The position numbers were made by a program, and so were the translations under genes. This document shows positions 24,245 through 56,122 of a stretch of DNA of 64,000 nt, in pieces. Within the stretch, counting starts at the first letter, position 1, and the number at the start of each line of letters is the position of its first letter. Under the pieces are notes generated by a model that ran no database searches, was not told where the DNA came from, and saw nothing but the letters and a program-made list of their open reading frames with translations. The stretch is from a virus, in the IMG/VR virus record IMGVR_UViG_3300027744_000013, positions 32,001 to 96,000 of that record. The stretch is one strand, 5' to 3'.

Positions 24245-24521
24245 ACCTGGCGCAACATACATATATGAGCGTGACAGAGAAACAGTCTACGCTCGAGAAT
24301 TTGGTGCAGACCCAAGTACTAGACAAGTAGTCGGATGGGATTATGATAAAGAACATCCAAAGTTTGATCCTCGGACCAATGATGGCAGACCGTTACTTGA
24401 TCATATAATGGACAGCAAAATGTGGGGCGAAATTCGGCGAGAAGCACGTACCAATGTGACTTTACAAAAGGCTCTGGATCGTGTTATAATGATATACAAA
24501 TTAAGCAAGGACAAAATATAA
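24231..24521 (+). CDS. Hypothetical protein
   Basis: Coupled ORF. Confidence 0.6.
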   Translation: MGSLKPGATYIYERDRETVYAREFGADPSTRQVVGWDYDKEHPKFDPRTNDGRPLLDHIMDSKMWGEIRREARTNVTLQKALDRVIMIYKLSKDKI

Positions 24522-25174
24522 TGGCTTTACATATTGCATATTTTCAACCAACAATTTTTGCAATTGACACAGTTGCGCCGGTTGAATTTAGTAGAATTTT
24601 TAACTTAACTGAACAGTTACATGCGCATCCAGAGTTAGATGATGCATCCAATCCGTATACTAGTGTTCGTGGAGGACAGCAAATACAAGTATACCCAAAC
24701 GATCTTAACATTGATACTAGTTGGCTTGTTGCATACTTAGAAACAATGTGTAAAGGCTACATGGAAATTGTTTCTAAACAGAGTACAACAAAAGATTTAG
24801 ACATGTGTAGACCCGTTGTTACTAGCATTTGGACTATTAGACAATCCCAAGGACAGTATCAAGAATTGCACAGTCATCCAGGTGGAAATCTAAGCGGAAA
24901 CATTTATATCACTGCACCCGAGCTTACATTAGATAGTAATCCAAGTGACTCACAAATTGCATTTAGAATGCCGCAAACAAGAGACGTTACTAAATTTATG
25001 ATGTCAGATATATGGAAGTACAGCCCAACTCCAGGTTCGATTGTTCTGTTCCCAAGCCATATACCACATACCGTTTATCCGTGGAAAGGTATGGGATATC
25101 GTACTGTGTTAGCGTTTGATGCTAGATTAGTTCCTAAAGACGAAGTGTTAGAAACAGAGCAACCAAATGAGTGA
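24521..25174 (+). CDS. 2OG-Fe(II) oxygenase-like
   Basis: HSH, SGNIY, LFPSHIPH.V.P, RTVLAFD. Confidence 0.8.
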   Translation: MALHIAYFQPTIFAIDTVAPVEFSRIFNLTEQLHAHPELDDASNPYTSVRGGQQIQVYPNDLNIDTSWLVAYLETMCKGYMEIVSKQSTTKDLDMCRPVVTSIWTIRQSQGQYQELHSHPGGNLSGNIYITAPELTLDSNPSDSQIAFRMPQTRDVTKFMMSDIWKYSPTPGSIVLFPSHIPHTVYPWKGMGYRTVLAFDARLVPKDEVLETEQPNE

Positions 25175-31917: not shown

Positions 31918-32367
31918 ATGCATCTGTACCACATACGCGACATCAATGATCCACAGGTTCGGGTCATCAAAGATGATCCAGTGCGACCACACATTCCCCT
32001 GGAACAGCGTGTAAACGATCTAGCGGAAATACTGATATTGAAAGCCGGAGAAGAAGTGCTGGCGGCCACATGTATGCAATGGCTACGTGATATCCCCAAA
32101 GATGAACAAGACCTTATTGATCTAGCTGAAACACATGATGTGGCTGTGTTCTATACCATTTGGTCATACAGTCCGGGCGCCGGTGCTGAACTGCTGAGAC
32201 AGGCCGCGGAATGGTTACGCACAGAGTTCAAGGATATTAAAAGCATCGTTACGCTGAGTCCCCCAACTGAAATGGCTCGTAAGTTCCATATGAAGAACGG
32301 TGCCACAGTACACAAGACCAACGAGACCACAGTTAACTACAAGTACTACGATCGAGACGCCGCCTAG
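31918..32367 (+). CDS. Hypothetical, possible GNAT-like fold
   Basis: DDPVRPHI, FYTIWSY.PGAG, TLSP.TEMA..FH.KNGA. Confidence 0.55.
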   Translation: MHLYHIRDINDPQVRVIKDDPVRPHIPLEQRVNDLAEILILKAGEEVLAATCMQWLRDIPKDEQDLIDLAETHDVAVFYTIWSYSPGAGAELLRQAAEWLRTEFKDIKSIVTLSPPTEMARKFHMKNGATVHKTNETTVNYKYYDRDAA

Positions 32368-38906: not shown

Positions 38907-38981
38907 TGGTCCGGCGTAACGGAATCGAACCGCTATTTAGGGAGTAGAAATCCCCTGTATTATCCATTATACGAACGCCAG
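38907..38981 (-). tRNA. tRNA-Arg(UCU)
   Basis: Full cloverleaf, anticodon loop TT-TCT-AC, encoded CCA. Confidence 0.92.
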
Positions 38982-38982
38982 A

Positions 38983-39061
38983 TGGTAGGCCCTCCCAGAG
39001 TCGAACTGGGCACCAATGGATTATGAGTCCACTGCTCTAACCAAGCATGAGCTAAGGGCCT
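38983..39061 (-). tRNA. tRNA(CAU), probably Ile2
   Basis: Cloverleaf, loop CT-CAT-AA, Ile2-like body, encoded CCA. Confidence 0.88.
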
Positions 39062-44372: not shown

Positions 44373-44467
44373 AGTTTCGCTCCTAATGTTTGTTTGTATG
44401 TGTGTATTATAGCACTGTTTGGGCAAAGCGTCAACCGCGTTAAAAAAAGCCCCTAAGGGCTGTAGGG

Positions 44468-44629
44468 TTATGCTACTGCTTTATAAACTATTACAGTAGT
44501 GTCCGCAAAATCTGCGTGTGCATTGTAAAATGCTTGTGCTCGTGCAATAGCGTCTTCTGCGCTAGTTGCTGTTACTACGCACAAATCTTCTATGTTGTCG
44601 TAACGCAAATAAACTGTGTATTTCTGCAT
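44468..44629 (-). CDS. 53-aa early protein, GA/GG-free template
   Basis: Read manually: MQKYTVYLRYDNIEDLCVVTATSAEDAIARA...; own promoter. Confidence 0.7.
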   Translation of the reverse strand: MQKYTVYLRYDNIEDLCVVTATSAEDAIARAQAFYNAHADFADTTVIVYKAVA

Positions 44630-44764
44630 GGTGTTTCCTTTGTTGCTAAGTGTTAATTATAGCGCAAAGGGTCCAAAACGTCAACAGCTTTGTGCAAAGA
44701 CCCTGATGTCAACCAGGTCTTTTTTTAGGCCGTAAAAAAACCCTACGTAGTGTAGGGTTTCTTA

Positions 44765-44977
44765 TTATGCTCCGACTTTTGCAAGAACTTCTGTTACATG
44801 TTCTACCAACTGCCAGACGGGTCGTTTCTGCGTATCGGTATAGCGGATAGCTGGCTTGCCGTTTTTAAAGTCATTGTTGATCTCTTCAACGATAACAATA
44901 ATAGCGGGACTACTGCCAAACCCTTCGCGTACTTTTACGATGGAGCCGACTTCTATTTGGTCTACTGTTACATACAT
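44765..44977 (-). CDS. Early hypothetical protein
   Basis: AAGGAGG RBS. Confidence 0.7.
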   Translation of the reverse strand: MYVTVDQIEVGSIVKVREGFGSSPAIIVIVEEINNDFKNGKPAIRYTDTQKRPVWQLVEHVTEVLAKVGA

Positions 44978-45008: not shown

Positions 45009-45218
45009 TTAATAAAAAAGGCCTAGTACATATAGAGCGAGCAGTACTCCGTTAACAATAATTAAATTAGTTTCCTTAATGCGCACAGCCCAAATCAAGT
45101 ACAGTAGGGCCCCCGCATTTAGAAAGTATATGTTAAGGGGGTCTATGCGCAGGCTAGTAAACAGGGCCCCTGCTAGCACTGTAGCGCACCCTGCCCATTT
45201 TAGTATGTTGTTTAACAT
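45009..45218 (-). CDS. Small membrane protein
   Basis: Three hydrophobic segments; TAATG coupling. Confidence 0.7.
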   Translation of the reverse strand: MLNNILKWAGCATVLAGALFTSLRIDPLNIYFLNAGALLYLIWAVRIKETNLIIVNGVLLALYVLGLFY

Positions 45219-45595
45219 TACAGTTCCATGCTCGCATAGCCGTCGTCTTGCATACCCTGCTCTGTAAACATAACGTCTGTACCTAGCAGTGTGCTAATCG
45301 CATCTACAAAACCGCTGTCTGTGTACAGTCTCCAGCTGTCCTCGTACTCCGCATCGCCGTTAACCGTGTAGCACACTGCAATGTGTATGCTACTGTCGCC
45401 GTCCAATTCGTCCCACCATGTCTCGTGTATGTGTATGCTTGTAACTGTAACTGCCTCAATCTCGCAGTCCCATATACTGTCACCTGCAAGTTGCACCTCT
45501 ACGTTGCAGTCGTATGTTGTACTAATACTGTCTGTGTTAGTCTCTGTACTTGCCAGTGTCAGCTTGTTGCTAACTTCAAATTGTGTTGCTTGCAT
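45218..45595 (-). CDS. Acidic early protein, GA/GG-free template
   Basis: IYTD-like YTDSGF, FTEQGMQ; own promoter; no Pro. Confidence 0.8.
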   Translation of the reverse strand: MQATQFEVSNKLTLASTETNTDSISTTYDCNVEVQLAGDSIWDCEIEAVTVTSIHIHETWWDELDGDSSIHIAVCYTVNGDAEYEDSWRLYTDSGFVDAISTLLGTDVMFTEQGMQDDGYASMEL

Positions 45596-45635
45596 AGTTT
45601 TCGCTCCTAATGCTTGTTAAAAATTAATTATACAC

Positions 45636-45791
45636 TCAATCTACGTAATAGTCAACCGCTTCTGTTAGCTTGTGCAAAGCACCCTCTAACTCAGCAAAGC
45701 ACCCCATCTCTGCTAGTTGCTCGCCGTCCAGCGTTGCCTCTAACAGCATGTCTTCTACTTCTGCTAGCTTTGCAAGTATCTCGTCTCTCAT
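45636..45791 (-). CDS. 51-aa acidic early protein, GA/GG-free template
   Basis: Read manually: MRDEILAKLAEVEDMLLEATLDG...EAVDYYVD; AAGGAG RBS. Confidence 0.7.
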   Translation of the reverse strand: MRDEILAKLAEVEDMLLEATLDGEQLAEMGCFAELEGALHKLTEAVDYYVD

Positions 45792-45792
45792 T

Positions 45793-46011
45793 TTACGCTC
45801 CTTCTGTGTAAGTATAACCCACTTCGCCTGCTAGTGCGCAGTCCATCCACTCCTCAAAGCAGTCCTCTGCGTACTCCTCTTCCCAAATTAGTATTTCGTC
45901 ACAGCTAGCAATCTCCTTGCCGCGTTGTAGCGTTACCTTTACAGTACTACCGCTAGCATATTCGCTAGTGTAATAGCCTGCCGCTTCTATGTTTACTACT
46001 TTTACTTTCAT
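45793..46011 (-). CDS. Acidic early protein, GA/GG-free template
   Basis: Own promoter and leader; no Pro. Confidence 0.75.
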   Translation of the reverse strand: MKVKVVNIEAAGYYTSEYASGSTVKVTLQRGKEIASCDEILIWEEEYAEDCFEEWMDCALAGEVGYTYTEGA

Positions 46012-46088
46012 TTCGCTCCTTTGTTGCTAAGTGTTAATTATAGCGCATTTAGCCAAAACTGTCAAATGCGCTATAAAGACCCTACAGT

Positions 46089-46343
46089 TTACTCTACAAA
46101 TTCTACGCTGTTTGTGCGTAGTTGTGCGTAAACGCTAGGCAATACAGTACTTAATTCTTGTGCTAAGTTTTCTGCAAGTAAGTCGCCGCTAACATAAGCG
46201 CATTTTGCTTGTGTAGGAAATGCATACTTTACTATGCCTGCTGTAGTAATTGTTTTGTGTGCGTTAAACGCCACAACTAGTTTGTAAGATTTAAGTTTTT
46301 TGTTAAAAACTAACTTGGCTTTTGCAACACAATTTGTAAGCAT
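46089..46343 (-). CDS. Early hypothetical protein, GA/GG-poor template
   Basis: Own promoter. Confidence 0.75.
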   Translation of the reverse strand: MLTNCVAKAKLVFNKKLKSYKLVVAFNAHKTITTAGIVKYAFPTQAKCAYVSGDLLAENLAQELSTVLPSVYAQLRTNSVEFVE

Positions 46344-46441
46344 TTGGTTTCCTTTTTGTTTAAGTGTTAATTATACTGCACTTAGCCCAAAGTGTCAAGC
46401 CAAAAAAGAATAACCCTGGAGCCAGCAGGGTTATCCATGGT

Positions 46442-46762
46442 TCACAAGTACTGGTCGTTCAAGCTGGGCACTTGTTCCTTAACCAGTGCTCGTTCGTATG
46501 CATAGGCTTCCTTGCGTCCGCGTATGATTGCGAGAACCCGGTGTTCCCAAGCCCAATCCATAGCACCCATCTTCAAGTACTCGTACAGGACCCAAGCCCT
46601 GTTTTCGTTACGGGCACGGCTGATATGCTTGCGCCACCGTTCCTTAACCACCTTGTTGACATTGGCCAGGCTCTTGCGTGTTAGGCCAATGTAGTTCTCG
46701 CCGTGCTCATCCGTCATTTCGTATATGATGTAGTTGCAGTCTACTCGGGTTTTACGTCTCAT
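46442..46762 (-). CDS. GIY-YIG nuclease-like protein
   Basis: YIIY...YIGLT, RWRKH, E...LN; own promoter and leader. Confidence 0.75.
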   Translation of the reverse strand: MRRKTRVDCNYIIYEMTDEHGENYIGLTRKSLANVNKVVKERWRKHISRARNENRAWVLYEYLKMGAMDWAWEHRVLAIIRGRKEAYAYERALVKEQVPSLNDQYL

Positions 46763-46863
46763 GGTTCGCTCCAATCTCTCAGTATCTTATTATAACATTT
46801 GGAACCCAAAGTGTCAACCGCCAAAAATACCCACACTCAGCCCAGGGTCTCTCTAAAAGCCGT

Positions 46864-46892
46864 TTGACAGGAAGGCCAAAAGACAGTATAAT
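46864..46892 (+). promoter_or_regulatory. Consensus sigma70 promoter divergent from the early array
   Basis: TTGACA-17-TATAAT. Confidence 0.85.
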
Positions 46893-47076
46893 ATACACAT
46901 GTTCGAACTTAGAGGGGGTGGACGTGGAGAGCGGGCGAAAGGTTCTCTGTTAGTAAGCGCCAACTAACTTAGGCGGCTGTGGCGAAAAAACAACGACCTG
47001 GTTGACAAAAGGGTTATACAAAAATCCGGTTGACAAAACGGATTTGGACGGAGCGCCTCCGGCCCCTAAACGCCGT

Positions 47077-47295
47077 TTACTTTGGAATGGATCCTGGCAC
47101 ACAGGGCTGACGTGCAATAAACTTAATAGCATCCTCTTGACTCTCAAATACACCATAATCACATGCGGTATCACTATACTTGAATATATGCACATGCTGA
47201 CTAGCTATACAGTAGCTGATATGTATATAGTAGTCACGATCACTAACTCTGACATGTGCCAGTGTGACCATATTGTTCTTAGATATATCCATCAT
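47077..47295 (-). CDS. Hypothetical protein
   Basis: 72-aa ORF; no clear RBS. Confidence 0.4.
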   Translation of the reverse strand: MMDISKNNMVTLAHVRVSDRDYYIHISYCIASQHVHIFKYSDTACDYGVFESQEDAIKFIARQPCVPGSIPK

Positions 47296-47378
47296 GTATT
47301 TACAGTCATGCTAGTCTATATATACAGTGAACAGACTCTGCCACTGTGCCTTAGTGTGATCCAGTGTGAATATTCTTA

Positions 47379-47847
47379 TAAAAGTGTGATCTAGATCAGA
47401 CCACCATGCGTAGATGCGTCACTAACGGTGGTCATGGTTGACAAAAGTGTGGAAAAGTGCAATAAAGTGTGACACTTTCAAGGTAATGAGTCAGAATCAA
47501 GGCTGGCCCCCCAGCGTATAGGCACTGTAAAGAATGGTTCGGATCAGGCAGGGAGGCATAGTTAAAATGGATACTCTAAAGACCTCTACAGCGGGGCCTA
47601 CTGTAGTACAGGTCCTCTAAGCTAGCCCATTACCCTCGATCACTACAGCGGGGCCTATTGCTATGCTATACACGCTGTGCCACAGATGCTCAAACTGTTT
47701 GACTCCAGCGTGTATGCTGTGTATAGTATAGCTTATAAGTCCGGCAAAGCGAAGCGTTCATTGTTCTATATAGTCTAGCTACCATTAGGGATCATAGCAG
47801 TACTGTATATGCACTACGCACACATAGCAACAGCGGGGCCTTTGCTA
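47379..47847. repeat. Repeat-rich non-coding tract (AAAGTG x4, ACAGCGGGGCCT x3)
   Basis: 12-mers at 47588, 47645, 47830; another at 42076. Confidence 0.7.
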
Positions 47848-52480: not shown

Positions 52481-52957
52481 ATGGCTAGCAGTTTAACAGT
52501 AGTAAAGGGCAACTTGATTGCCATGGGCAAGGCTAACGACTTTGACATCATTGTACATGGGTGTAATTGTTTTTGTACAATGGGCGCAGGTATCGCCGCA
52601 CAGATTGCACAACAGTTTCCAGATGCGAACTTAGCGGATGCTGAGACTGTACGTGGTGACCCTGGCAAGCTAGGTACGTACACAATTGGCATGAGTGGTC
52701 GATTGGTTATTCTTAATGCCTATACCCAATATGGAACAAGCAACACAGGAAGAGATGTATTTGAATACACAGCCTTTGAACGTGTGCTGGACAAGATTGC
52801 CAGCCGCTTTGGCAAATGGCGCATCGGACTTCCAATGATTGGTATGGGTCTAGCAGGAGGTGATGCAGAGCGTATCATTCCTATGTTAGAACGGTTTGCT
52901 GAACGCATGGCCCAAGCAGGCGGCAGTGCTACACTGGTGGAATATGTTCAATCTTAA
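52481..52957 (+). CDS. Macro-domain protein
   Basis: KGNLI, IVHGCNC..TMGAGIA, NAYTQ, PMIGMGLAGG. Confidence 0.88.
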   Translation: MASSLTVVKGNLIAMGKANDFDIIVHGCNCFCTMGAGIAAQIAQQFPDANLADAETVRGDPGKLGTYTIGMSGRLVILNAYTQYGTSNTGRDVFEYTAFERVLDKIASRFGKWRIGLPMIGMGLAGGDAERIIPMLERFAERMAQAGGSATLVEYVQS

Positions 52958-53599: not shown

Positions 53600-55011
53600 A
53601 ACCCGTAATACTAACTGTTGATCAATGGAAAACAATTCGCAAAGAGTTACAAACAGAACACCCTAAAACTATGTTTATGATTAGGGATAAGATGAAACGT
53701 GTATTAGGATTTACAGTCAGAGAGCATAATGAATGGGTAATAAAACCAGACGGTGGTTATGGTGAATACCAAATACATTTAGATTTTTATAGTGAAAACA
53801 AACGTACAATGTTCTTGTTAAAGTTTAGTGAAGTAATAGGGAATAAAGATGGAAAACTGTGAAGTGGGCATGTTTAGATTGCCGGGCCTTGTATTTGAAA
53901 AAGACCAATTGCCTCCTGAACTACTTGAGGAGATGATTGCTTGGGCCAATGCTGAAGGTGTTGGCATGAGCATGACTGATCGTTTGTGGTCATTTAAAAA
54001 AGAAGCACATAGAGAATGGTTTATCCTCAAATGGAGTGATAGCATTCCAAGACCAGATCCTAAGGATGTATGACAATGGCTTGGGCAATAAGTAACGGTA
54101 CTATTTACGGAAAACGATACTATACAATAATGCCGCCTATGTTTTGTTACAACTGGCCCGACATGGAACTGTGGTGCTATCAACGATTTGGTCCTACTGG
54201 CAGTCTATGGAAAGAGCGGAAGAATCTTGCGCCAGAACCAAATCAGCGTTGGTATGCTAACGACAGTAAGTTTTGGTTTCTAGAAGAGAAAGATCTTAAT
54301 TGGTTTGTATTACGGTGGATGGAATGAAGACAGAACAACGTAAACAATATTGGGGAGCTCTACATGCTGTGCGTAGCGAGTATAGAGAAGCTGTGGGAAA
54401 CAATGCTGAAATGACCGGCCCCACAATGCCTTATTGGGTAGAACAAAAATACGGACTTCGCATGGGTCTAGATGGATCAGGTAACTACACACAATACTAC
54501 GATGTTGTGGATCCTAAACGATTTTTATTTTTTCAAATAAAGTATATGAAATGAATATAGAAGAAGATATTATTAATCGAGCTGGCAAACGAATGGCTGA
54601 TGAAATAGACTTTCAAATTCTAGCCGATATGCTTTGTGAACTAGGGTGGCGCAAGGTTATACTCAGTCCAATGACATGGGAAATGGGACTTGAAGTAGAT
54701 GCGTGGACAGCAAAACATATCAAAGGCCCAGTTGAAAACATGGGATTAGTTTGGATATTTGAACAGGAAGAAGATGCAAATTGGTTTGCACTGAGGTGGC
54801 TATGATAACAACTAGATTTGAAGAAAGCGTATGGAATCAAATTGCTGATTACTATTATGATAATATACATTGGAACAAAGAGTTTCCTAACATGACAATA
54901 GATCGTTGGGTATTGGAAAAGTTTGGTGCTAAGGTTAATAGAGATGATCGTCTACTTGAATTTAATACCGCGTCAAAGAGAGATTGGTTTATACTTCGAT
55001 GGGGGATGTAA
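53596..55011 (+). other. Six tandem small paralog-like CDSs (53596-53862, 53849-54073, 54070-54327, 54324-54554, 54551-54805, 54802-55011)
   Basis: Overlapping ORFs with C-terminal F-x-[LI]-[KR]-[WFY]. Confidence 0.75.
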
Positions 55012-55625
55012 TGCAAGCACCAGTAATATATCCTTTATTCTCTGCGCCGGTATATGTACAGTTTGGGTTAAATCTTAGTGTATTAGACAGTACATTAACA
55101 GAATTAGAACAACTACCTGGCCTTGGTCCTGACTGTGGATTGAGCCAAAACATTGATGTATTAGATCGTCCAGATCTTGCTAACATACGCAAACTATGTG
55201 AACAGCATTTACAGTTATATGTGTCAAATATATGTGGCTATGACAACGATATACGTATAACAACCAGTTGGATGTCACGTAATCCCCCGGGTGTTGATCA
55301 TCCCCCACACAATCATCCAAACAGTTTGTTTAGTGGATGCTTGTATTTGAAATCAAGTCCAGATAATAAATTTAATCTGCATGGACAAAATCACTTTACA
55401 AAACACTGGCCGTTCACATATAATATAAAAACAAATAATATTTACAACAGCGATGATTGGTGGATTCCAGTAGACACAGGTACACTGGTTATATTTCCCA
55501 GCAACTTACAACATAGCGCAGGCCCTAACCAATTAGATGAAACTCGTATTGTATTATGCTTTAACTCTTTTATAAAAGGTACACTAGGCAGCTCAGGAGA
55601 CTTTGCCGCTAGATTAAAATTATGA
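55011..55625 (+). CDS. 2OG-Fe(II) oxygenase-like
   Basis: HNHPNS..SG.LY, IFPS.L.H, RIVLCFN. Confidence 0.85.
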   Translation: MQAPVIYPLFSAPVYVQFGLNLSVLDSTLTELEQLPGLGPDCGLSQNIDVLDRPDLANIRKLCEQHLQLYVSNICGYDNDIRITTSWMSRNPPGVDHPPHNHPNSLFSGCLYLKSSPDNKFNLHGQNHFTKHWPFTYNIKTNNIYNSDDWWIPVDTGTLVIFPSNLQHSAGPNQLDETRIVLCFNSFIKGTLGSSGDFAARLKL

Positions 55626-56122
55626 ACATATTTTTAGACATGGATGATGTGGTTGCCGCCTGGCAAGAACGAGCACAGGATATATTGAAGCTACGTGTTA
55701 ACAAAGACAGTGACCGTATTCCTCAAGCGGAATGGGATAAACTCAAAGAAGACCTGCGCTTTTATCGTGACTTGCCATTAATGGAAGGCGCACATGAGCT
55801 GGTTGGCATGTGCAAAGAATATATTGCTCAAAATCCGCAGTACACACTACGATTCCTAACAGCACTACCACACGACTATTCAATGCCGTTGGCGGTGTAT
55901 GATAAAGTACATTGGGGAGACCAACACTTCCCAGGCATACCAGTTACCATCGGGCCATTCAGCTACGACAAATGGCGACACTGTAAAAACTCAGGAGATA
56001 TCCTGATTGATGACAGGCATTCAAATTGCGAAGAATGGGAAGCTCGAGGCGGCAAGGCCCACGTGTATACCACTTGGACTAACTGCAAGCCGTGGTTAGA
56101 GAAAGAGCTTGGCCAACTATAG
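55622..56122 (+). CDS. HAD 5'(3')-deoxyribonucleotidase-like
   Basis: FLDMDDVV, FLTA, ILIDD. Confidence 0.85.
   Translation: MNIFLDMDDVVAAWQERAQDILKLRVNKDSDRIPQAEWDKLKEDLRFYRDLPLMEGAHELVGMCKEYIAQNPQYTLRFLTALPHDYSMPLAVYDKVHWGDQHFPGIPVTIGPFSYDKWRHCKNSGDILIDDRHSNCEEWEARGGKAHVYTTWTNCKPWLEKELGQL

Follow-up and report, generated by a model that had tools for sequence, protein, structure and literature searches.

In a giant T4-related (PA5oct-like) lake phage, about 1 kb of early genes has been cleared of the dinucleotides UC and CC (together YpC, or YC: U or C followed by C on the message strand). The exclusion affects only one strand and particular transcripts, it accompanies certain genes, and selection has maintained it across diverged phages. 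The window analysed here is a 64,000-nt stretch of DNA corresponding to positions 32,001 to 96,000 of the 108-kb IMG/VR record IMGVR_UViG_3300027744_000013 (referred to as G000). No near relative was found by megablast against GenBank phages.

The YpC-free run and its genes

On the + strand, YC reads as GA or GG (GR). A strand-specific dinucleotide count between positions 45166 and 46077 found no GA and no GG among 158 G residues; each G precedes a pyrimidine, in 75 GC and 83 GT. These counts bear out the original prediction, made by reading the letters, that about 910 nt of the template strand lack both dinucleotides, and that this is not chance: given the window value of P(R|G) = 0.47, the probability that 158 of 158 G are followed by a pyrimidine is ≈10^-43.6 (about 1e-44). 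The GR-free gap measures 913 nt (45165 to 46078), where ≈93 GR would be predicted from the window average. No dinucleotide class in the window has a more extreme gap: this one amounts to 93 times the mean spacing of its class, while the longest in the next unrelated class reaches 22 times. A second GR gap of 164 nt (44466–44630) matches exactly the open reading frame (ORF) of a 53-aa protein (44468–44629), which had also been picked out as GR-free. No second run of the core's kind was found elsewhere in the whole 108-kb record, and the core run is likewise unique in a 353-kb near-complete relative, with a purged part (i.e., one cleared of YC) of ≈1 kb per 353-kb genome.

The genes are oriented leftward, and it is therefore the message strand that lacks UC and CC. 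The exclusion follows the transcribed strand, as had been proposed, and the message strand itself is rich in GR: the 912-nt core contains 76 GA and 58 GG (i.e., 76 TC and 58 CC on the other strand). The message composition of the core is 259 G and 158 C. C thus amounts to 158 in 912 nt, compared to ≈12% in the window, and C following a purine is enriched. The features of the locus, in the direction of transcription, are as follows:

46408–46436, − strand: terminator that closes the preceding unit, whose gene for a GIY-YIG nuclease is unpurged; the depletion reaches no further in the 5′ direction
46370–46398, − strand: σ70 promoter of the partly purged 84-aa gene, 12/12 consensus, no YC
46089–46343, − strand: gene for an 84-aa basic protein, partly purged, 5 YC in 49 C
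45166–46077, − strand: YpC-free core; 2 promoters and 3 whole genes, plus the initial 52 nt of a fourth
46037–46075, − strand: σ70 promoter, 12/12 consensus; −35 at 46065–46060, −10 at 46042–46037
45793–46011, − strand: gene for a 72-aa acidic protein, pI 4.1, 0 YC in 34 C
45636–45791, − strand: gene for a 51-aa acidic helical protein, pI 4.1, 0 YC in 25 C
45627–45655, − strand: internal σ70 promoter, 11/12 consensus, overlapping the 3′ end of the 51-aa gene, no YC
45218–45595, − strand: gene for a 125-aa acidic protein, the core of the cassette, 0 YC in 74 C
45009–45218, − strand: gene for a 69-aa two-helix membrane protein, translationally coupled to the 125-aa gene
44765–44977, − strand: 70-aa gene, last in the operon, unpurged, 19 YC in 43 C
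44738–44760, − strand: palindromic terminator hairpin at the operon end, YC in the stem
44656–44684, − strand: σ70 promoter of the separate 53-aa unit; CC in the untranscribed spacer
44468–44629, − strand: 53-aa gene, no YC from ATG through stop exactly
44448–44467, − strand: terminator hairpin immediately 3′ of the 53-aa gene, containing YC

The 84-aa gene had correctly been described as having a handful of exceptions and the 70-aa neighbour as normal. Part of the leftover YC in the former falls at a conserved Phe-Pro, and the mean YC/C of its family is 0.11. The 69-aa gene has no YC in its first 52 nt and is normal in the remainder (13 YC in 44 C), whereas the 51-aa family has a YC/C of 0.018 over 35 copies. 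One CC is located 2 nt upstream of the ATG of the 53-aa gene. The promoter at 46037–46075 is flanked by a perfect 9-nt inverted repeat, TATAGCGCA (46075–46067) and TGCGCTATA (46047–46039), which is found at only this one of the 32 promoters of the record; promoters of this type also stand at the head of purged units in relatives. Nothing in Rfam matched between 43000 and 48000.

All 164 C residues at codon positions 1, 2 and 3 are preceded by a purine. Not one of the 108 Phe, Ile, Val, Thr and Ala codons is of the form NYC, NAC codons are favoured (GAC 22 vs. GAT 5), and the 33 codons that begin with C are all preceded by a codon with a purine in third position. Proline is missing from the four fully purged proteins, and their serines are encoded as AGY in 17 of 17 codons, just as had been stated. 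Three of these proteins are strongly acidic (pI 4.1), also as noticed, while the fourth has a pI of 4.6. The exclusion is set at the level of the nucleotide sequence rather than that of the codon.

The YC-free region includes the 5′UTRs and the internal promoters, and it is bounded by terminator stems, where CCC, which is double-stranded in the RNA, has been kept. In 83 distinct purged units, the YC density was 0.0002 in the coding sequence and 0.001 in the 5′UTR, compared to 0.093 and 0.013, respectively, in 245 normal units. The DNA upstream of the start site is also YC-poor (0.014 for promoters heading purged islands vs. 0.042), with no YC upstream in 20 of 27 island-heading promoters vs. 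54 of 204 others. The exclusion extends 34–89 nt into the next gene. Template GG is present in the 5′UTR of the 53-aa unit and, 18 nt past the stop codons, in terminators. In the partly purged genes, the residual YC is scarcest as YCA (CCA 0.083 vs. 0.162; TCA 0.083 vs. 0.190).

Purged genes in related phages and in the early region

At least seven unrelated families of small genes are fully purged (YC/C ≤ 0.02) and ≈7 families partly so (YC/C 0.04–0.21); all remaining neighbouring families have a YC/C of 0.3–0.55, including families of equal acidity. Partly purged genes, with one YC per 50–80 nt, coexist with fully purged ones. The exclusion goes with the genes, independent of their map position. 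The 53-aa gene is purged in both of its settings: here it forms a unit of its own, and in a relative (L014) it lies within the main purged cluster. In the relative G002, normal genes lie between two purged blocks. The exclusion is common to diverged phage lineages, while other lineages have the same gene family in unpurged form.

Selection was assessed on 50 distinct copies of the 125-aa gene, down to 70% nucleotide identity, with 190 of 381 columns variable. Following a purine, the pyrimidine is C in 3781 cases and T in 1836 (67% C); following a pyrimidine, it is C in 9 cases and T in 1755 (0.5% C, or 9 of 1764). Over 95 loci, down to 43% amino-acid identity and with one outlier left out, 12 YC occur in ≈33 kb. 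The pattern reflects strong, continuing selection that acts on each site separately: with a residue so near zero, every single YC must presumably carry a cost. Nevertheless, the CC before the ATG of the 53-aa gene and the nine YC in the 50 copies imply that a single site is not lethal. Since only ≈1 kb of 353 kb is purged, it would be gene expression that is protected, and not the integrity of the DNA.

The purged genes belong to the early class and are preceded by consensus σ70 promoters, and their short ORFs carry Shine–Dalgarno sites. The early region comprises at least 12 kb with ≈20 equally strong promoters, and ≈1 kb of it is purged; the other ≈20 early units with equal promoters are undepleted, with a YC/C of 0.3–0.45. 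The region was found in 13 freshwater metatranscriptome runs. RNA contigs from four of the runs span the whole leftward early region, with a gap at the divergent promoter. The contigs show no higher abundance of purged messages, but contigs can neither rank abundance nor show ends, and as contigs rather than reads these data are uninformative on message stability or cleavage. The phage also has an early macro-domain gene, at 52481–52957. A macro domain was rejected as a core feature, as it was detected in G000 only and barely above the cut-off.

Explanations for the loss of YpC

Our preferred, although tentative, explanation is that the exclusion reflects evasion of a factor, either an RNase or a base modifier, that hits single YpC sites in mRNA. 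Host RNA polymerase would transcribe the small early-gene cassette from its consensus σ70 promoters. Selection has removed all UC and CC from the 5′UTRs and coding sequences in all codon phases, and the proteins have adapted by giving up proline and restricting serine to AGY. In the infected cell, the putative agent would attack single-stranded YpC site by site on RNA. It might be either an endoribonuclease or, like CmdT, an enzyme that modifies bases, and it might come from the host, as an immune effector, or from the phage, as its own shut-off weapon. YpC-free messages would remain intact and translatable while other messages were disabled, and a few small, mostly acidic early proteins would thus still be produced.

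Messages without cleavage sites escape sequence-specific mRNA interferases, as in the case of MazF and ACA-less mRNAs, or of T4 RegB and GGAG. Here, too, a short motif is missing from the message strand of certain genes, and such messages would survive an active RNase. Consistent with RNase-site-free mRNA, it is the message strand alone that lacks the motif, whatever the codon phase, and the 5′UTR lacks it as well. Unlike the 3–4-nt motifs of MazF and RegB, however, YC is a degenerate dinucleotide, avoidance of which forces a rewriting of the protein itself, and the early phage genes that lack it are unrelated to one another and form a mobile set. We know of no enzyme with YpC specificity, a YC-specific RNase included.

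A precedent for dinucleotide-specific attack on mRNA is provided by the CmdTAC system, in which CmdT ADP-ribosylates GA in T-even phage mRNA and blocks translation, the site being defined by the target base and its 5′ neighbour; a site-by-site attack on a dinucleotide in single-stranded mRNA, in a T4-like infection, would be common to both cases (PMC11618068). GA, the target of CmdT, is however abundant in the purged messages. To our knowledge, there is no C-directed CmdT homologue with a YC context, nor any report of phages avoiding GA.

Some observations fit less easily with an agent acting on RNA. The YC-poor promoters could be accounted for only by read-through or by a single related promoter family, no RNA model cleanly accounts for the spread of 34–89 nt into the next gene, and a uniform exclusion in many lineages would be unexpected if the agent were a patchily distributed host defence. 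Gene content was compared between two purged (G001 and G002) and two unpurged (G003 and G004) genomes, four genomes being too few to decide. Thirteen genes are exclusive to the purged pair, among them a carbamoyltransferase, a MazG-like enzyme, a phosphoribosyltransferase, a cupin and several of unknown function; none of the 13 is a candidate nuclease, RNase or ADP-ribosyltransferase. A UC/CC-cutting RNase had been listed as an alternative in the original prediction: avoidance of UC and CC at the RNA level has become the favoured reading, but the purged-only genes supplied no RNase candidate. A more elaborate scenario, possible but on the doubtful side, is that lake or sea bacteria, or the giant phages themselves, own an enzyme that cuts or marks single-stranded RNA at YC and shuts down expression, that phages keep mobile YC-free “emergency” genes, and that the 125-aa protein is the antidote or regulator of this enzyme.

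Evasion of Rho is an unlikely explanation, although it accounts for the identity of the dinucleotide. A message without YC could not load Rho and would be finished even if transcription runs uncoupled from translation early in infection. YC is exactly the ligand of the Rho primary site, in which six clefts, one per subunit, each take up one YC, and both cases involve single-stranded nascent RNA made by host polymerase (PMC5314796). Moreover, loss of a single YC weakens termination in a YC-poor leader (PMC5314796). The limitation to the message strand and to transcripts, the tolerance of YC in hairpin stems, the excess of G over C in the message (259 vs. 158) and transcription by the host RNA polymerase are all consistent with Rho, which, as a core factor, would also fit a uniform exclusion in many phage lineages. 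However, Rho needs several YC spaced across 60–90 nt, which it binds cooperatively (PMC5314796), whereas the exclusion here operates per site and in few genes. Isolated YC should be tolerated, since an additional site would be almost neutral once YC is rare, yet C makes up only 9 of 1764 pyrimidines after a pyrimidine in the 50 diverged copies. Furthermore, C as such is not avoided, but enriched after purines, and the purged genes are well-translated short ORFs with Shine–Dalgarno sites. The other ≈20 early units keep a YC/C of 0.3–0.45, which suggests that Rho is no general problem for the early genes of this phage.

The original prediction favoured modification of the virion DNA: a bulky mark, similar to 7-deazaguanine, on G in GA and GG, with the template of the cassette kept clean for host RNA polymerase. 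We consider this improbable. Phage CAjan reportedly carries 7-deazaguanine (preQ0) at GA and GGC, with which the GR of the template strand overlaps, and the limitation to one strand and to transcribed DNA would be in keeping with such a mark. CAjan, however, modifies both strands genome-wide, we know of no purged early genes described in it, and no DpdA was found in the phages studied here. The profile of TGT/DpdA (PF01702), for which a search had been suggested, had no match in G000 (the 108-kb record), G001 (353 kb, 98% complete) or G002–G006 (of which G004 is 100% complete), while the control gave a match in every one of 14 genomes. PF00303 (thymidylate-synthase-type/dCMP hydroxymethylase) was absent from G000 and G001, and profile searches found no C5 or N4/N6 methyltransferase. 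(A search for Tet_JBP also matched nothing, but is uninformative, since its control matched in no control genome.)

A NodU-type carbamoyltransferase and a MazG-like pyrophosphatase are present in the two purged genomes and absent from the two unpurged ones, and members of both families are associated with cytosine hypermodification (PMC8670742). The carbamoyltransferase of G001, which has a homologue in G002, is however without the PF00303 partner of the pathway for carbamoylation of 5-hydroxymethylcytosine (PMC8670742). This route would, moreover, modify C, but the template strand is rich in TC and CC. The notion that first-wave genes need a clean template holds up insofar as these are early genes with consensus σ70 promoters; it does not explain the ≈20 neighbouring units with the same promoters that are unpurged, nor the template GG in the 5′UTR of the 53-aa unit and in the terminators.

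Also very doubtful is an agent acting on the exposed non-template strand of the DNA, such as an APOBEC-like deaminase, a C-directed ADP-ribosyltransferase or a nuclease resembling T4 endonuclease IV (single-stranded TC). YC is the combined APOBEC3 context, and the residual YC, poorest in YCA, recalls TCA-preferring enzymes. The promoter DNA of purged units is likewise YC-poor, there is the early macro-domain gene (52481–52957), and ADP-ribosylation of cytidine has a precedent (PMC12945103). However, damage anywhere in the 353 kb would be equally harmful, which would make a 1-kb purge useless; polymerase is not stopped by non-template lesions, and other, equally transcribed early units are unpurged. 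The deaminase in particular, another of the alternatives first listed, fits poorly: synonymous NYC sites are equally purged, serine is recoded as AGY in conserved proteins, and YT is not in excess (1755 T after a pyrimidine vs. 1836 after a purine), so that the pattern is not a mutational footprint. A search for NADAR gave no match, and DarT1 was rejected as a GR reader, as it has no defined consensus motif that could match GR.

Finally, the idea that no specific reader is involved, and that composition, codon bias, a preference for unstructured mRNA or chance produced the pattern, can be dismissed: purine-rich messages (61–64%) and acidic proteins do lower the expected number of pyrimidine–pyrimidine steps, but the chance probability is ≈1e-44, the exclusion spans codon boundaries and UTRs and survives 30% nucleotide divergence, equally acidic neighbouring families are unpurged, and the purged stretch is predicted to fold with much the same energy per nt as the remainder of the early region (−0.227 vs. 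−0.247).

The cassette proteins and the meaning of the exclusion

The 125-aa protein belongs to a widespread phage family with >1300 homologues. Neither it nor the remaining cassette proteins had a match in Pfam or PHROG. Its AlphaFold2 model is confident (pLDDT 94), but Foldseek found nothing under E = 0.25 in the PDB, and VIA-align gave a top Z of 5.2, which is at noise level, with no clear match to a solved structure. In the ESM Atlas, the only matches were viral clusters without a name (scores ≤0.79). The small, mostly acidic proteins, and the conserved 125-aa family above all, probably serve in counter-defence or take-over, and one of the cassette proteins may be an antidote to the YpC agent.

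That a host factor reading a very short motif can shape viral sequences is familiar from eukaryotic viruses (CpG and ZAP, UpA and RNase L, TC and APOBEC3), and phages avoid restriction sites and PAMs. While all these biases are genome-wide and partial, the exclusion of YC is nearly absolute, strand-specific and restricted to ≈1 kb of a 350-kb genome. A literature search returned no report of a near-absolute dinucleotide exclusion on the message strand that is confined to a few mobile early genes.

The exclusion is strong enough for proteins to do without proline and to use only two of the six serine codons. It would represent the sharp evolutionary footprint of an agent at work in abundant, uncultured giant lake phages, and it offers a direct handle for finding that agent, while flagging the small proteins as likely agents of counter-defence or take-over. 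Should the agent behind the exclusion prove to be a dinucleotide-specific RNase or RNA modifier, its use as a tool would be of interest too.

A YC-free stretch in the leftward early region

Direct counting on the + strand at 45166–46077 gave 158 G, of which 75 were followed by C and 83 by T, with GA = 0 and GG = 0, as the original prediction had it. The genes here lie on the minus strand, so their message strand is free of UC and CC (YC, or YpC), and we refer to such genes as purged. The gap of 913 nt (45165 to 46078), where ≈93 GA or GG (GR) would be expected from the window average, is 93 times the mean spacing. When all single and paired dinucleotide classes in the window were compared, the next unrelated class reached 22 times, making the GR gap by far the most extreme of the window. 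The probability of a pyrimidine after all 158 G is ≈10^−43.6 (P(R|G) = 0.47), and chance had rightly been dismissed. The second largest GR gap (44466–44630) exactly matches the ORF of the 53-aa gene from ATG through stop, confirming that this whole ORF (44468–44629) lacks GA and GG. The few exceptions predicted in the ORF at 46089–46343 and the normal composition of that at 44765–44977 were also found (YC/C of 5/49 and 19/43, respectively). No comparable run occurred elsewhere on either strand of the entire 108-kb record.

The source is a virus fragment of 108 kb in IMG/VR, estimated to be 29% complete, of which the window comprises bases 32001–96000. Genes in the window include those for a 1132-aa tail sheath, a large terminase, a UvsX-like recombinase and helicases. 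The terminase shares 55% identity with its counterpart in the Pseudomonas jumbo phage PA5oct, with Atu_ph07 and Rak2-like phages as more distant kin; no near relative was found in GenBank. The purged genes belong to an array of small leftward genes with 22 near-consensus sigma-70 promoters, originating at a divergent promoter pair, 46817(−) / 46864(+).

Units, terminators and other features of the early regions
Unit 1, −: promoter P46398, 84-aa gene, P46065, 72-aa and 51-aa genes, P45655, 125-aa, 69-aa and 70-aa genes, terminator 44760–44738
Unit 2, −: promoter P44684, 53-aa gene, terminator 44448–44467
44738–44760, 44448–44467 and 46408–46436: early-region terminators with a common CCCTA...TAGGG palindrome core, then T runs, acting as unit boundaries
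46442–46762, −: first leftward early gene, a small stand-alone GIY-YIG nuclease (PF01541, 23.2 bits), unpurged (21 YC / 73 C)
38907–39061, −: adjacent tRNA Arg(TCT) and tRNA Met(CAT), within the leftward early region
52481–52957, +: rightward-arm early gene, a macro-domain protein (PF01661, 23.7 bits, barely above the cut-off)
54999–55625, +: 2OG-Fe(II) oxygenase (PF13759), rightward early region
55622–56122, +: 5'-deoxynucleotidase (NT5C), adjoining the oxygenase

The macro-domain protein could remove ADP-ribose marks; no match was found in G001, the 353-kb relative.

The stretch was present in 13 freshwater metatranscriptome runs from separate studies. RNA contigs of four runs, which can neither rank abundance nor show RNA ends, covered the leftward early region. 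In three of the four there was a hole at the divergent promoter (46818–47418), which points to RNA and not to DNA contamination.

Transcript limits, promoter and codon usage

The ban follows transcripts. Across units drawn from the source phage and its relatives, YC density was 0.0002 in the CDS and 0.001 in the 5'UTR of 83 distinct purged promoter-gene units, compared to 0.093 and 0.013, respectively, in 245 normal units. YC-free runs start where the preceding terminator forms its stem and end either at the next terminator stem, with the first YC 18–28 nt past the stop codon, or 34–89 nt into the following gene. The terminator stems themselves retain CCC, and CC is present in the promoter spacer of the 53-aa unit, which is not transcribed. 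The overrun from the 125-aa gene into the next gene, seen at 45166–45218 and in the related loci L001, L017, L061, L066 and L085–L088, halts abruptly, in many cases where the first conserved Pro codons occur; the shortest overrun, 34 nt, corresponds to roughly one ribosome footprint.

The ban also travels with the genes: the 53-aa gene is purged both in its own unit in the window and inside the main cluster in locus L014. Clustering of all ORFs of 95 related loci gave at least seven unrelated families with YC/C ≤ 0.02 (47 to 125 aa; mostly pI ≈4, one pI 10) and about seven at 0.04–0.21, while the remaining neighbouring families all fell at 0.3–0.55. In the partly purged 84-aa family, some of the residual YC lies at a conserved Phe-Pro. 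The residual YC of partly purged genes is poorest in YCA, a weak additional lead.

The promoter heading the fully purged block (46037–46075, −) is flanked by a perfect 9-nt inverted repeat, of which one arm, TATAGCGCA, immediately precedes the −35 and the other, TGCGCTATA, overlaps with the −10. Only one of the 32 consensus promoters of the 108-kb record has this 9/9 repeat, the others reaching at most 6/9, and many relatives have similarly built promoters (TATAGCACAC...GTGTGCTATA) at the head of purged units. The repeat may serve a dedicated regulator as its operator. Promoters at the head of purged islands are likewise YC-poor, which may reflect one related promoter family bearing this unusual repeat, read-through transcription or a DNA-level component.

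At the codon level, all 164 C in the four fully purged genes are preceded by a purine (33, 61 and 70 at codon positions 1, 2 and 3), showing that the ban is set at the nucleotide level. C-initial codons always follow a purine-ended codon. Codons ending in C are favoured after A or G (GAC 22 vs. GAT 5; AAC 6 vs. 1; TGC 7 vs. 1), and the NYC codons TTC, ATC, GTC, ACC and GCC are never used (0/108). Ser is encoded exclusively by AGY and there is no Pro, as had been noted for four proteins. Since C after purine is enriched, selection acts on the 5' neighbour and not on the C content.

Distribution and selection among relatives

The 125-aa protein has >1300 metagenomic homologues. We collected 95 DNA loci of its gene, mostly freshwater with at least one marine assembly, at amino-acid identities down to 43%. 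These contained 12 YC in ≈33 kb, excluding one outlier (40% identity, 10 YC). In 50 distinct full-length copies, which share as little as 70% nucleotide identity and vary at 190 of 381 columns, the pyrimidine after a purine was C 3781 times vs. T 1836, and that after a pyrimidine C 9 times vs. T 1755.

G001 (98% complete) carries a single such run genome-wide. Its second most unusual C-context gap (24469–24733, +) is 263 nt without CC or CG, of which 160 nt lack YC. Among distant family members, G002 (256 kb, 35% GC), in which normal genes separate two purged blocks, and several other contigs (42–52% GC) are purged, while G003, G004 (complete, 400 kb) and loci L125–L128 are unpurged; 42 of 90 short family representatives are proline-free. 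This spread and divergence, together with the existence of purged and unpurged lineages, indicate a ban of long standing that is widespread and lineage-dependent and is being actively maintained. The feature is genuine and under strong selection.

The genes common to the purged G001 and G002 and absent from the unpurged G003 and G004, G004 being the closer relative overall, include the following four.

Genes shared by G001 and G002 (G001 coordinates)
L108:8140–9969, +: NodU-type O-carbamoyltransferase
L102:1099–1482, +: MazG-like pyrophosphatase
L103:10587–11132, +: phosphoribosyltransferase
L110:14344–14700, +: cupin

Cytosine hypermodification has been found together with carbamoyltransferase and PRA-PH domains (PMC8670742), but a search for a hydroxymethylase found none here.

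The structure of the 125-aa protein, predicted with confidence (pLDDT 94), is a domain that combines a beta-sheet with helix and carries a conserved FTEQGMQ motif C-terminally. Neither Pfam nor PHROG gave a family match for the protein, no solved structure matched significantly, and the domain is also embedded in proteins of 200–850 aa. The remaining purged genes encode small and mostly very acidic proteins. The position, size and charge of the purged-gene products suggest a putative counter-defence or take-over role.

Candidate agents behind the ban

The purged share is only ≈1 kb of a 353-kb genome, and some 20 early units nearby, whose promoters are just as strong, are unpurged. Thus, what is protected must be the expression of these genes, not the DNA as such, and the agent must be one that the other genes either do not face or face only until the purged-gene products act. 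We favour an RNA-level agent at single YpC sites. It would act on individual single-stranded YpC sites of the message, either as an endoribonuclease or as a base-modifying enzyme; a translation-blocking adduct would fit the CDS and 5'UTR pattern particularly well. Dinucleotide-specific attack on mRNA exists: CmdT ADP-ribosylates GA in the mRNA of T-even phages (PMC11618068), whereas the step avoided here is YC. The agent could be an effector of the host or a shut-off weapon of the phage itself; that the ban is so uniform across lineages slightly favours a core host factor or a phage-encoded agent. No cognate YpC enzyme was found.

A serious rival, which the original prediction had not considered, is evasion of Rho, whose primary binding site is to our knowledge the only well-known reader of YC in nascent bacterial RNA. 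The banned dinucleotide is the ligand of that site (PMC5314796). However, Rho binds several spaced YC cooperatively, so that an extra site in a YC-free background should be nearly neutral, yet YC is kept at 0.5%. Furthermore, C itself is not avoided in the purged messages, and other early genes show zero YC depletion. These three points therefore favour the single-site RNA agent.

The explanation originally preferred, modification of the template DNA at GR, lacks its enzymes: no DpdA was found in seven records, of which two are essentially complete, and searches for hydroxymethylase and C5 and N4/N6 methyltransferases were negative, as was that for Tet_JBP, where the control was uninformative. 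It also leaves the unpurged neighbouring units unexplained. Models of damage to the non-template DNA strand are disfavoured, since it is expression that is protected. A mutational deaminase footprint, another alternative raised originally, is excluded by equally purged synonymous sites, the lack of a YT excess and the recoding of Ser to AGY.

We found no description of such a YC ban in the literature, and we consider it a new variant of target-motif avoidance, which we put down to a presumed YpC reader.
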